Of a DNA stretch of 19,314 nt, positions 3,928 through 19,314 are shown one piece after another. Origin of the DNA: a virus (taxonomy: Duplodnaviria > Heunggongvirae > Uroviricota > Caudoviricetes); the IMG/VR virus record IMGVR_UViG_2563366958_000002, one strand, 5' to 3'. The notes under the pieces were generated by a model, which had not been told where the DNA came from, did not search any database, and was given only the letters and a program-made list of their open reading frames with translations. Both the position numbers and the translations under genes were made by a program. Each line of letters starts with the position of its first letter. Position 1 is the first letter of the stretch.

Positions 3928-6900
3928 TGCATAATCCTCCGTCCCGACGTGATGACTGCATAATTGACACAACCCTGCTGTCGATCAGATCCACCAGTCC
4001 CCTGGCTGAGCGCGCATCTATCTCGCCATTGCTCCCTTGATTCTGAATGCTGATGTGATACACGGGAGAATAAACAAATCCACCGCCACCATTCACATTT
4101 CCAATGGCCCTGACCCCAAGAGAGCCGTCCGCTGCCCGTGTCAGTGGCATGATTGCTTCAGGCCCGGCCTCGCCCATCAGCCCGGCACCTTTCGCAAAAG
4201 CAAAATACGTCGGGGTATCCACAATGGTGTTACTGTAAGCACTCAGATTTGCCGATGTATAAACACCACCTTTTGCGTTTGCCACTGCACCGGAAAGCCA
4301 GTCGCCGACTGTACCAAGCCATCCTCCGGCACCGGACATGCTTTTGGAAAGTGACTTCAGCCCGTTAACGATGGCAGCGTTCATCAGAATTTTTGAAACT
4401 TCCTGGAGAATTGAACTCCCCCAGTTTCTCCAGTCCACAACATTTCCGGCCAGTGCATCGGAAATATTTGATACCAGCCCGTCCATAGTGGAAACGACAG
4501 CATCTGCCGCCTGCGAAGCATAATCGGTGGCACTGTCTGCCCAGTTCGTCAGTCCCTCCTGGAGTCCGGCATTCCAGTTACTGCGTAAAGCATCAGCCTT
4601 TGCATAATAATCCTGCTGATCGCTGAGACGCTCTTCCAGATATTTTTCATTCAGAGATTTTTCCTGTTTCCACAGGGCTTCTTCAATTTCTCCGGCCTGA
4701 TACTGTCTCAGTAGCTCGTTATTTTTCTGCTCAAACTCCTGCCGGATGCTCCACATTTCCTGAAGTCGTTCACGCATCCGTGAGCCTTCACCATATCCCA
4801 GTAACTGAGCCTCATTTGATGCTCTGACACTGGCATTACTGTCCGCCAGACTGCTCTCATACGCAGCAAGCTGCTCACGAATCTTTTTCTGGTCGATGAG
4901 TGCTGCATTCTGCAAAAGCGTTTTTTTCTGCGCTTCTGACAGGGTTGATAATTCGCCCTGGCTGACCTGATATTTCATCTTAGCCAGTTCAGTATTCTGC
5001 CCTGCCAGTGCTACTTGCTCTTTTTGCTGTTTAATCAGTTGCTTATAAGTATCTTCTATTTTTTCCGCTTCGGTCTTTTTATGCGCTTTGGGTTTATTTG
5101 CCTGGTTATTTCGCCATGCATCCAGTGAGTTATTTATATAATTCAGTCTTGCTGTCTGATACGCCTCTCCCACAAAGCCGAGATCATCCGCAGCATAACC
5201 CAGGCGGGCACGCTCACGAGCTTCCCCCTTCAGGCGGGACAGAGCCAGTTCGCGCTCGCTGTTATTCAGTGCGGTCTGCTGTTTATCATCCAGGGTTGCC
5301 TGTGGTAGCCGTAACGGTACATTCACCAGCCCCTGTCGCTGCTGAAGTAATTCATTACCGAGCCCGAGAAGGCGATTAAACTCGGTATGCTGCCCATTCA
5401 TGATCAACAGGGACTGATACGCTTTGTTTTGTTCCGCTGCCTGTTGACGGATCAACGCCACCCGTCGCTCCTCCAGCCCGGCAAGCACATCCTGAATGGA
5501 TTGCGCTTTGCCCTGCATTTGAGTGAGGCGAGACTGTTCAACTGCCAGTTGATTTGTTGCTTCTGCAAGCCCTTCTGTGACAGTTTTTACCGACGTCATG
5601 TGGTTAATCATAAAACCGTTATCGGTTGTCCAGCCCGGGTTTGCCAGCACATACTGATAGCCAGCAATTTTTTCCTGTAAGGATTTAATCTTACTTTTCT
5701 GCTCGTCAATTAACCTGTTTTGCTCCTTCAGTGCCTGTCGCGTCTTTTCCTCATTATCTGACGCTTCAGGAAGCGACATTGCCGACGTTTTCTGGCGAAT
5801 TTCGTCGATTGTTGCGGCATACTGGCGTGCAGATTCTCTGGCCTGCTCCTGATTCTGATACATCGTGTACCAGGCCGCAGCCCCCAGCATGACGAGTCCC
5901 GGCACACCACCAACCAGCCCCAGCGCGCCACTTAATAAACGACTCCCCACTGACGTAACATTATTCAGCGTTGTCTGTGCCGCTGTTCTGGCCGCAATAT
6001 TACGGGTAAGTGACACCTGGGCAGCTGTCAGCTTCGCTTCTGCTGCGGCCTGCCTTTCGGTACCGCGAGCAGCAACAACCGCCTGTTGCGCACGATAAAC
6101 CGCCGCACGCGCCCTGGCGGTTGCTATCTGTGTCCCCCGAAGTTGCACTTCAGCAAGAGCCACTTCGTTTCTGGCTGCAGTAATTAATCCGGCAGTTGCA
6201 GATCCAGCAGACGACGCCATATTGCCAAAATATCGGGCTACCCCGACGGCAACCAGAGCACCAGCAGCGGTTGCCACGGTGTCAATATTGCCTGCAATAC
6301 CATTCAGCACACCGGAGAGCGTCTTCGTCACTCCGCTTGCCTCGTTCGCACCACCAACCCAGGCCATAAAGGCGTTTTCAACTTTGGTTGCAGAGGATGA
6401 AACCGTATCAGGCATTGCTGCATATTCATCACGCAACGCCCCAAGCTGACTAATCAGTGCAGGAACAACCTTATCGGCGGTCAGTTTTCCGTTATCCGCC
6501 ATGGCCTTCAGATCCTTACGGGCAACCCCCATTCCCGCAGCCAGCGCACGAATAACACGATCGCCGTTCTCATTCACCGAGTTAAACTCTTCACCGCGCA
6601 GCACTCCCTGCGCCAGTGCCTGACTGAACTGCGTGATCACCGAACTGGCTTCTGCTGTACTGGCACCGGATAATTTCAGGCCCGTGGAGATCGCCTCGGT
6701 GACTTTCAGTACCTCCTCAGAACTGTAACCATACTCCCGCATGGAAGCTGCAGAACGGGCAAAAAGGCTGGCGTTATCAGAAAACGCCGTCCCCGTTCTC
6801 TGGCTGATCGCCATTAATTCACGCTGTGATGACTGAAAATCATCACTGGACTGTGAGGCCTGCTTCAGACGGGCATTTACTGAATTCCACTCATCGGCGA

Positions 6901-17221: not shown

Positions 17222-17572
17222 TTAAGGTTGTGATTCCGGAGGAGTCTTCAGAGAACCAGTAATTCTTCCTGGTAGCTTTCCTTTGTAGGTTATCCACACA
17301 TTCTGCGCATCTAAAATTACGGGGCGCTTTTCCGGCGGCTGCTCATCCCCTTCACATAACCCGGCAGCAACATCCAGGAAGACCTGTCTGATGCTCCTTC
17401 TGGCTGCTGCCTCATAAAACTCCAGCGCGGCACCTTCAACACGGTCCAGCGAGATGTCCAGGTCAAAAATTTCACCGTCAAAGCGTTTTTTGTCCCGTAA
17501 CGCTAAAGTTACCGTAACTTTATTCTCAAAATTGCGGATCCCTTTCACAATCAGTTCATAGTTTTGAGTCAT
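17222..17572 (-). CDS. Hypothetical protein (116 aa) inserted between pinholin and endolysin
   Basis: ORF MTQNYELIVKGIRNFENKVTVTLALRDKKRFDGEIFDLDISLDRVEGAALEFYEAAARRSIRQVFLDVAAGLCEGDEQPPEKRPVILDAQNVWITYKGKLPGRITGSLKTPPESQP. ATG lies 4 nt after the pinholin stop, with GGAGAG upstream. No transmembrane segment or signal peptide. Not recognised. Confidence 0.6.
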   Translation of the reverse strand: MTQNYELIVKGIRNFENKVTVTLALRDKKRFDGEIFDLDISLDRVEGAALEFYEAAARRSIRQVFLDVAAGLCEGDEQPPEKRPVILDAQNVWITYKGKLPGRITGSLKTPPESQP

Positions 17573-17576
17573 TGAA

Positions 17577-17792
17577 TTACTCTCCCCGTGCCGCCTTACG
17601 ACGGTCCTCTCTGATTTTGAAATACAGGTTAGTCAGATATGTCAGCAGCCCAAACAGCAGACTCCCCAGCACGCCTATTGCCGCCCACTGAGACGGGGAA
17701 ACCCTGTCCAGCAACTGCAGGAACCAGTAGCCCGTTCCCACCGCTGACGTGGTGTATGACACACCTGTTGTGATTTTTTCCATCTGGTCCAT
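17577..17792 (-). CDS. S: Pinholin (phage 21 S-type class II holin) with dual-start motif
   Basis: 71-aa product [71 protein letters not shown], recognised as S21-family. Met1 and Met4 give antiholin and holin starts. GGGAGA upstream. The 35 codons upstream in track ORF 17577..17897 are treated as non-coding. Confidence 0.88.
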
Positions 17793-17941
17793 ACCCCGTC
17801 TCCCGTTATCCGGAAGCTGACAACAATAAAAAAGCCACCAGTTAACTACTGATGGCTCTGATAACTCATGCAAGCGTCTCAGACGATCCACTGACACTAC
17901 CGGTGAGTTTAACGATACCTTCCATTTGACTGGCTCACTTT

Positions 17942-18103
17942 TTATGATGATGCCGGTGCATTTATCTCCAGCACCAGACTTTCTATCTCAACGCCATACG
18001 TTGCATTTTTGGTAATATCCGTCAGCGTCAGTACATTTAGTCCCACTGCCAGACTGTCTTTTATGGCCTGGAATGCCGGGCCAGTACGATGACGTAGTAT
18101 CAC
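17942..18103 (-). CDS. Candidate small ORF (about 53 codons, GTG start) overlapping the end of the upstream small gene; possibly the displaced 3' part of a frameshifted gene
   Basis: Hand-translated open frame [53 protein letters not shown]. Its GTG overlaps the TGA of ORF 18100..18288 (GTGA). No ATG and only a weak SD. Confidence 0.22.
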
Positions 18104-18288
18104 TCGGGCTCAGTTGCACCACTGACCACCACATCACCTTCTGCTGCAATCGCCTGCATCAGGGTATAAGGGGTTATGGCCACCGGACTACCAAACGGCT
18201 GCCAGCCCTCTTTCAGTTTATGTGTCAGCTTTTCCGCAAGATCTGACGGCGGCGCCGCCCTGACAACATCATAGTGTTTAAATGCCAT
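18100..18288 (-). CDS. Small hypothetical protein (62-67 aa) upstream of the lysis cassette
   Basis: Track ORF 18100..18303. Internal ATG at 18288 gives [62 protein letters not shown]. Moderate G+C, in contrast to the AT-rich DNA immediately upstream. Family not verified. Confidence 0.5.
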   Translation of the reverse strand: MAFKHYDVVRAAPPSDLAEKLTHKLKEGWQPFGSPVAITPYTLMQAIAAEGDVVVSGATEPE

Positions 18289-18548
18289 GGTTCTTTCCAC
18301 CATCTGAAAAATAATTCTTTAAAATACCAGACATGTAACACAGAAAAAACACAAAACCATACCTTAAATAGAAACCTGATCATCAAGCAGATATGCATGG
18401 ATAAACTACAAGACGAGATATAAACCACCCTGCATTTAAATAAACAATAAACAACATCAGAAAAATAATTCTGCTCTATGGTTTATATTCAAAAATATCA
18501 TTTATACTTTTCAGAACATCACCAGCAAGGCATAAACAAGGAAGCTAA

Positions 18549-18884
18549 ATGAAGTGGATTGTGATTGATACAGTTATCCAGCCATCATGCGGAATATCTT
18601 TTTCAGTCATATGGAGTAAAATAAAATTAATAATCTGGTATCAATCGGATGCTTTCTTACCTCCTGAAAGTATATTTACACTGACTCACACAGGTATCAT
18701 GCTCAATAACAAAGTGCTACCTGTAACCATTTACAACGTAGTACCATTCAATAAAACATTCTGGAATTTAATCAAAAACAGCCAGGAATGTCCTACAAAT
18801 ACAGATAACGTATTGAATGAATGCTTTAATAACCGTTGCACTCTGCAAATATGTCCTTATGGACTAAAACAACAAAGTCCATAA
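18549..18884 (+). CDS. Hypothetical Cys-containing protein (111 aa) in an AT-rich island, opposite in orientation to all phage genes
   Basis: [123 protein letters not shown] 4-6 nt before the ATG; candidate -10 TATACT at 18503..18508. A 111-codon open frame is unlikely by chance in stop-codon-rich AT-rich DNA. Confidence 0.55.
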
Positions 18885-18919
18885 GGAGTTTACTCACATC
18901 TGACAAAATCAATATAAAC

Positions 18920-18939
18920 AGCCCCTCCGGAGAGGGGCT
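18920..18939. other. Perfect 8-bp stem hairpin AGCCCCTC-CGGA-GAGGGGCT
   Basis: Palindromic. On the minus strand it is followed by GUUUAUAUUGAUUUUGU (terminator-like). On the plus strand it sits about 35 nt after the stop of ORF 18549..18884 but with no T-tract. Confidence 0.35.
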
Positions 18940-19135
18940 GGAGAGTGGCGCTATGTGCCATTGCATGGTGCCGGGTGCCTCCCGGTGAATTCAGTACCAG
19001 CACCTGAATCCGCGATTATCCCATATACCTACTCGCTGATTGCCCCTCCGCACAGGGGGATTCACCATGCCAGTTTCTTTTAACAAACTCCCCGCAAAAC
19101 AGACAACTGTCAACCGTCTGAATTGTGAGACATTT

Positions 19136-19160
19136 AAAAAAAGGCCCGCAAAAGCGAGCC
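19136..19160 (-). terminator. Intrinsic terminator downstream of tRNA-Arg
   Basis: Minus strand GGCUCGC-UUUU-GCGGGCC (7 bp, one G-U pair) followed by UUUUUUU, 14 nt after the tRNA 3' end. Confidence 0.6.
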
Positions 19161-19174
19161 GGGAAAAATAAGTC

Positions 19175-19251
19175 TGGCGCGTTGTACTGGATTCGAACCA
19201 GTGACCGATTGCTTAGAAGGCAATTGCTCTGTCCGGTTGAGCTAACAACGC
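19175..19251 (-). tRNA. tRNA-Arg (anticodon UCU)
   Basis: 77-nt cloverleaf folded by hand: acceptor GCGTTGT/ACAACGC, D-arm GCTC-AACCGGACA-GAGC, anticodon arm ATTGC-CTTCTAA-GCAAT, variable CGGTC, T-arm ACTGG-TTCGAAT-CCAGT, discriminator G, encoded CCA. Confidence 0.85.
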
Positions 19252-19264
19252 AGGGTACAGATAA

Positions 19265-19314
19265 TGGACCGCCATCGAGGACTCGAACCCCGCGCAACCA
19301 GCTTCGAAGGCTGG
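19265..19314 (-). tRNA. Partial tRNA (3' 50 nt; 5' end beyond window), anticodon stem-loop suggests UCG (Arg)
   Basis: Minus strand CCAGC-CTTCGAA-GCTGG (anticodon arm), variable TTGCG, T-arm CGGGG-TTCGAGT-CCTCG, acceptor 3' strand ATGGCGG, discriminator T, CCA. Lies 13 nt upstream of tRNA-Arg(UCU). Anticodon call is tentative because the 5' half is missing. Confidence 0.6.

Follow-up and report, generated by a model that had tools for sequence, protein, structure and literature searches.

What does a lambdoid prophage keep in a short AT-rich block, set among late genes that all lie on one strand, whose single credible gene points the other way? The question is raised by the stretch of DNA analysed here (the window, 19,314 nt), which is part of a lambdoid (HK97-like) E. 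coli prophage. To the left of the block the minus strand carries a P21-type holin, DUF1327/YdfR, lysozyme, Rz, HNH, terminase, HK97-type head and tail genes; of the lysis genes in the late operon, the holin (17577-17792) comes first downstream. A prophage of E. coli EC08 is 99.9% identical to the window, and its RefSeq annotation places all genes of the 19 kb on the late strand apart from the ORF of interest and one doubtful pseudogene. This agrees with an earlier reading made from the letters alone (the sequence-only reading), which had named that ORF the only credible plus-strand gene. The doubtful call, a 126-nt "hypothetical protein" pseudogene at 18955-19080 (+), overlies an STnc100-family sRNA.

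The block is compositionally distinct from everything around it. Its G+C content (0.325 over the 597 nt from 18304 to 18900) lies at z = -6.8 relative to other 597-nt windows, taken so as not to overlap the block, which have a mean of 0.526, a standard deviation of 0.029 and a lowest value of 0.446. Within the island the ORF has a G+C content of 0.339, flat by codon position (0.35/0.35/0.32), and the spacer upstream of it 0.298. The sharp fall in G+C that had earlier been judged by eye is borne out by this score and by the abruptness of the edges: in 50-nt bins the value drops from 0.50 (18251-18300) to 0.26 (18301-18350) on the left and rises from 0.36 (18851-18900) to 0.54 (18901-18950) on the right, a profile that puts the borders proposed at the time within about 15 nt.

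Comparison with phage PPyecE_EH1910 and phage 1717 shows the full variable slot to be slightly wider, running from the start codon of nanS-p (18288) to the 3' end of the STnc100 sRNA (18910). The left border is the stump of an esterase gene, and the right border is the intrinsic terminator hairpin of STnc100, located by a terminator scan at 18919-18940; the sRNA itself sits between the phage tRNAs and the plus-strand gene, with which it is convergent. No direct or inverted repeats that could be an insertion signature were found at the two borders, and an Rfam E-value search of 17500-19314 returned no RNA family inside the island. A 21-nt direct repeat (19 of 21 positions identical), CA[C/A]CATC[T/A]GAAAAATAATTCT, is present on the plus strand at 18298-18318 and 18452-18472, the first at the island's left edge, the second just upstream of the -35 region of the gene; the repeat could represent a site for a regulator, the scar of a duplication or a chance match in AT-rich DNA.

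Here we report that the island gene is iraL, whose product, transcription start site and effect on sigma-S were already published in 2014. The ORF at 18549-18884 (+) begins with ATG and encodes 111 aa with five Cys, and its product is identical at 111 of 111 residues to WP_000871291.1, the sole IraM-family protein of uropathogenic E. coli CFT073. The sequence-only reading had not recognised a protein that is in fact a characterised RssB anti-adaptor, annotated in RefSeq as "anti-adapter protein IraM"; in a megablast search of complete E. coli genomes with the region, the ORF bore the same label throughout. The CFT073 homologue was described by Hryckowian et al. (2014, mBio 5:e01043-14; PMC4045071) as 58.9% identical to K-12 IraM and as encoded on the potB island of CFT073, K-12 being without iraL; its locus tag is c1429 (PMC12890032). 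The same authors define iraL by at least 95% identity to the CFT073 gene, from which the present ORF differs at 2 of 336 nt with no change in the protein. Because the feature is IraL itself, the cargo gene is one already known.

Profile and structural matches point the same way. NCBIfam NF007393 (PRK09919, IraM) scores 162 bits against a cut-off of 121, with residues 1-110 on profile positions 1-113/114; the IraM chain of PDB entry 8TWD matches residues 1-78 at E = 9e-32; and among the PHROGs the protein belongs to phrog_4407 (244 bits), an unannotated family. Pfam hmmscan of 18549-18881 returned no family at E <= 0.1, and identity was therefore settled on the NCBIfam and PDB matches. Precomputed Pfam tables list PF11183 for close homologues, which disagrees with that empty result; PF11183 we take to be PmrD. 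An AlphaFold2 model of the protein, built from a 16-sequence alignment, reached a pLDDT of 36.9, and for this reason the PmrD-like fold is a prediction from sequence homology. The features of the island and its surroundings are collected in Table 1.

Table 1. Features of the iraL island and of the flanking prophage genes, in window coordinates
Feature	Position	Strand	Basis or remark
P21-type class II holin	17577..17792	-	Pfam PF04971, E = 4e-32; RefSeq annotation
nanS-p C-terminal remnant, 53-aa ORF	17942..18103	-	phrog_143 positions 582-632
DUF1737 N-terminal remnant of nanS-p / SASA esterase	18100..18288	-	Pfam DUF1737, E = 4e-17
AT-rich island	18304..18900	.	G+C 0.325, z = -6.8
iraL promoter	18482..18516	+	-10 TATACT at 18503-18508; start equivalent at 18516; likely -35 at 18482-18487
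Shine-Dalgarno AAGGAAG	18538..18544	+	4 nt before ATG; from sequence
iraL CDS, IraM-family RssB anti-adaptor	18549..18884	+	CFT073 identity, NF007393, 8TWD, phrog_4407; function from PMC4045071
Perfect 12-bp inverted repeat, 10-nt loop	18854..18887	+	in MFE and centroid folds
STnc100-family prophage sRNA, full-length	18910..19099	-	Rfam RF02076, 133.6 bits (gathering score 47)
Empty stx slot	19132..19137	.	junction for the ~1.34-kb stx2cAB segment of phage 1717; ~4 nt between blocks
Phage tRNA-Arg (TCT)	19175..19251	-	
Second tRNA, cut by window end	19268..19314	-	

The gene is preceded by expression signals of its own, one of which has been mapped in another strain. A 32-nt iraL leader, ACATCACCAGCAAGGCATAAACAAGGAAACCA, was obtained from CFT073 by 5' RACE (PMC4045071); in the CFT073 locus it is found unchanged at 32 of 32 positions, 33 nt ahead of the ATG, and in the window the agreement covers the first 28 nt, from 18516. 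That position lies 7 nt downstream of the TATACT that the sequence-only reading had singled out as -10-like, and because the leader maps there, the hexamer is the -10 of the published promoter. The Shine-Dalgarno sequence claimed at the same time is likewise present, as AAGGAAG before the ATG. The -35 is our own assignment from sequence and lies most likely at 18482-18487, reading TTTATA here and TTTACA in CFT073 as the result of a single C-to-T difference at 18486. Two further differences, at 18544 and 18546, adjoin the Shine-Dalgarno sequence (GGAAGCTAAATG here and GGAAACCAAATG in CFT073, before the start codon); the -10, the start site and the Shine-Dalgarno core are the same in both. A search by eye for a PhoP box like that reported for K-12 iraM found a single GGTTTA half-site (18480-18485). 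At the other end of the gene, a 12-bp inverted repeat covers the last iraL codons together with the stop codon, and this hairpin is possibly a 3' stabiliser or a weak terminator.

The function of the protein is known from earlier work. [quoted passage not shown] RssB is recovered in pull-downs with IraL, and two-hybrid assays show contacts of IraL with domains of RssB that differ in pattern from those of IraM (all PMC4045071). In the crystal structure of the IraM-RssB complex (8TWD), a PmrD-like beta-barrel formed by residues 1-78 reaches across the two domains of RssB and the helical linker, and the barrel blocks the 4-5-5 face of RssB needed by sigma-S. The 14 residues of IraM that contact RssB in this structure are identical in IraL in ten cases and conservatively replaced in the other four. 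All five residues of contact cluster I are identical, as are three of five in cluster II (the others being T13S and L75I) and two of four in cluster III (with H63N and I64V).

Based on these observations, we propose that a lysogen would transcribe iraL from a sigma-70-type promoter of the gene's own, situated in the AT-rich spacer, against a silent late operon, and that the product, predicted to comprise a PmrD-like beta-barrel (residues 1-78) and a tail with four Cys, would bind the response-regulator-type adaptor RssB. RssB could then no longer hand sigma-S (RpoS) to ClpXP, so that sigma-S would be stabilised in exponential growth and the general stress regulon pre-armed. RssB binding and sigma-S stabilisation are carried over here from the literature on the identical protein, and the activity of this promoter allele, with the same transcription behaviour in the present host, is presumed. 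We are highly confident that the gene is an iraL moron and that its product acts by sequestering RssB, and somewhat less so that this particular allele is active.

The differences around the promoter might instead mean that the gene is iraL by descent and is silent or much weaker here, a passenger with little effect on sigma-S. Such a copy could be accounted for by the change at the likely -35 and the two changes beside the Shine-Dalgarno sequence, and a -35 point mutation has been flagged in iraL2 of JJ1886 and in other strains, whose expression was left open (PMC4045071). Against this, the allele is a common one: the exact 90-nt region from promoter to start codon occurs in 267 complete genomes, as opposed to 32 for the CFT073 version, with other alleles in the remainder. 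The ORF is moreover intact and differs from that of CFT073 at synonymous positions only, and the -10, start and Shine-Dalgarno core are unchanged. We consider a silent copy unlikely, and regard the promoter allele as the chief reservation about function in this prophage.

Somewhat more improbable still is that the island exerts a cis effect on the phage, besides or instead of encoding IraL. An AT-rich block, probably bound by H-NS, together with an opposing promoter could damp transcription running through into the lysis genes of a lysogen, or conversely Q-antiterminated late transcription could shut off the iraL promoter after induction. The layout is compatible with such a role, since transcription of iraL runs towards both the late transcript and STnc100, and the gene lies directly upstream of the nanS-p remnant and the holin, and another antisense-oriented element, AgvB, occurs in the same slot of other phages. 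Levels of iraL mRNA rise by 1.6 log2 on a shift from 23 to 37 C (PMC12890032), which could be in keeping with a silencer loosened at 37 C, an interpretation that is ours and not that of the cited study. Against a cis role stand the purifying selection on the coding sequence, the demonstrated trans function of the protein and the unchanged layout of the late genes in phages whose slot holds a 62-nt sRNA.

That the ORF is a cargo gene for a new kind of Cys-rich protein (such as a toxin, an effector or a factor of anti-phage defence) outside known families, as might have been supposed from the failure to name it and from the empty Pfam hmmscan at E <= 0.1, has a negligible chance of being right and is refuted by the 100% identity to a characterised CFT073 protein, the NCBIfam score above cut-off and the homologue in PDB 8TWD, while PADLOC defence models gave no family at E <= 0.1 for IraL.

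The reading of the island as an iraL moron is also consistent with its distribution. The sequence-only reading had seen a horizontally acquired cargo gene of atypical composition, lying against the late operon and equipped with expression signals of its own, and this view is upheld by the G+C score of z = -6.8, the mapped start with its -10, the orientation and the variable content of the slot in related phages. The comparison suggested with it, for variable presence among relatives, shows the island in 1446 of 5426 complete E. coli genomes (1429 at a coverage of at least 80%, with two to three copies in a few), and some part of a wider 1315-nt region (18000-19314) is matched in 2968. Four phage records hold the island at 99% identity.

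Between 18289 and 18945 the window differs from CFT073 at 12 nt, ten of which fall in the 260 nt upstream of the ATG, as against two in the 336 nt of the coding sequence, both of them synonymous; this is the pattern expected under purifying selection. All nine sampled iraL alleles are intact. At least two promoter or leader alleles were seen in addition to those of the window and CFT073, one shared by loci L009, L010 and L012 and one in L011. Since roughly one in four complete E. coli genomes carries iraL, under several different promoter alleles of which the CFT073 reference is an uncommon one, RpoS set-points may for this reason differ between lineages.

The minus-strand neighbour of the island proved to be of another kind than had been supposed. 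The sequence-only reading had it transcribed divergently from the spacer, as a partner of the plus-strand gene. It is instead the N-terminal stump of nanS-p, lying inside the late operon and called a pseudogene in RefSeq: the ORF at 18100-18288 has 95% nucleotide identity to the first 220 nt of yjhS/nanS-p in phage PPyecE_EH1910 (L006), a gene for a 9-O-acetyl-neuraminic-acid esterase with DUF1737 and SASA domains. A consensus promoter scan of the spacer found no minus-strand promoter-like site, which also fails to favour a divergent partner; the scan is given little weight either way because it missed the experimentally mapped iraL promoter.

What is left of the esterase gene can be traced on both sides of a deletion. 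On phrog_143 (634 positions) the N-terminal stump covers positions 1-58 and the C-terminal stump 582-632, and window positions 17538-18084 align with L006 1469-2016, which holds the 3' end of nanS-p and the holin. The two flanking alignments overlap by 16 nt at 18069-18084, within which the junction lies, and because only the 5' and 3' ends of yjhS/nanS-p are matched, about 1.5 kb has been lost inside the gene. The same deletion is present in CFT073 and in many other prophages. In others again (L010, L011) a full-length esterase gene adjoins iraL.

The sequence-only reading had also placed the island at the position where Stx phages carry their toxin genes, and this holds only approximately: the stx slot itself lies some 230 bp further to the right, on the far side of STnc100. 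Window positions 18131-19132 align with 4214-5193 of Stx2c phage 1717 (L003) at about 70% nucleotide identity, and the tRNA segment at 19137-19313 aligns with L003 6530-6706 at 93%. In phage 1717 the stx2cB and stx2cA genes (L003 5235-6475) fall within the approximately 1.34 kb between these two blocks, and for that reason the stx position corresponds to window 19132/19137. The island does not itself occupy that slot, and in phage 1717 stx2c occurs together with an iraM-like gene.

The iraM-like gene of phage 1717, an ORF of 107 aa (ORF107) at L003:4615-4938 (+), fills the slot that corresponds to the island, immediately downstream of stx2cB and STnc100. The same ORF is found as well in phages 2851, LC159 and 258-320, in many Stx2c and in some Stx2a phage records, mostly unannotated or as "hypothetical". 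Like iraL it lies antisense between STnc100 and nanS-p, and 80 of its 107 residues are identical to IraL and 70 to K-12 IraM; its locus differs in having stx2cAB immediately upstream and a full-length nanS-p. A literature search found no study of ORF107, and an iraM-like gene directly beside stx2c appears to be unstudied. A Stx phage may in this way co-deliver a sigma-S stabiliser.

In phage PPyecE_EH1910 the place held here by iraL is filled by AgvB, the anti-GcvB sRNA (96.5 bits; L006:3875-3936, +). AgvB, known from EHEC prophages, resembles iraL in its slot, in lying on the strand opposite the late genes and in being a host regulator expressed in the lysogen. It differs in that it is a 62-nt RNA sponge and no protein gene, has no sequence similarity to iraL, and sits in a slot of 209 bp with a G+C content of 0.47, compared with the AT-rich island of iraL. 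Because AgvB too occupies the space from the STnc100 terminator to the nanS-p start codon, we view this slot as one used recurrently for antisense cargo that regulates the host. It may be a dedicated "regulatory moron" site, at which lambdoid phages swap iraL, iraM-like genes and AgvB.

A profile search of 1.84 billion representative proteins gave 93 matches, 48 of them at E <= 1e-10, which mostly measure 107-125 aa and align end to end; the named members come from Salmonella, Citrobacter, Enterobacter, Kosakonia, Cronobacter, Intestinirhabdus and Dryocola and are all annotated as IraM. Cys14 of IraL is unconserved and is Thr in most relatives. The other four Cys (C81, C92, C97 and C102) form a CP-x9-C-x4-C-x4-CP motif over residues 81-103 (window 18789-18857, +) and are invariant in 17 close homologues. 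All four are kept in 37 of 45 distant homologues from Enterobacteriaceae; of the eight that depart from this, seven have at most two of these Cys and resemble proteins with frameshifted C-termini. Few columns of the family alignment are conserved as highly as these four Cys and Pro103, and the tail, taken over its whole length, is slightly less conserved than the barrel.

In the work on the 8TWD structure this tail (residues 79-107) was cut off as proteolytically unstable and was termed less conserved and flexible. The conservation of its Cys would be compatible with a small Zn- or redox-sensitive module that may control the stability or activity of the IraM/IraL/RssC family, and such a module, if real, would give prophage-borne anti-adaptors a metal or oxidant input. 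We put forward this reading and that of a dedicated regulatory slot jointly, as two independent proposals, and rate the two as tentative and rather doubtful.

The value of the finding is one of calibration: a reading of raw sequence picked out a real lysogenic-conversion gene together with its -10. The minor new points are the slot common to AgvB and the iraM-like gene of Stx2c phages, the conserved four-Cys tail and the promoter alleles; they leave the classification as the known iraL unchanged.

Among known systems, K-12 IraM (YcgW/ElbA) shares with IraL the family, the four-Cys tail and, as predicted from sequence homology, the class of PmrD-like barrel, with 66 identical residues (about 60% identity) that include 10 of the 14 RssB contacts, and its gene is likewise AT-rich (G+C 0.34) and beside prophage-type genes. 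It differs in measuring 107 aa, without the QQSP end of IraL, and in adjoining icdC/e14 instead of lying in a late operon. The possibility that the present gene is the orthologue of K-12 iraM was ruled out, since nucleotide identity amounts to 71% over the ORF alone and the flanks have no homology to the K-12 locus. Published work describes K-12 iraM as induced by Mg2+ starvation via PhoP, and iraL as a log-phase gene whose product contacts RssB differently (PMC4045071).

The closest counterpart is the CFT073 locus, in which the protein, the -10 and the start site are the same and the leader agrees over the first 28 of 32 nt. The neighbours are the same as well, with STnc100 and the tRNAs on one side and the DUF1737 stump, holin, YdfR and lysozyme on the other. 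The locus differs by the 12 nt described above, including one in the likely -35, and the rest of the prophage is different. An additional stretch of about 620 bp, which includes a small DUF3927 ORF and is absent from the window, separates STnc100 from the tRNAs in CFT073, and an IS200C transposase lies between the tRNAs and Q; the two are found at L001:5141-5784 and 6192-6650, respectively.
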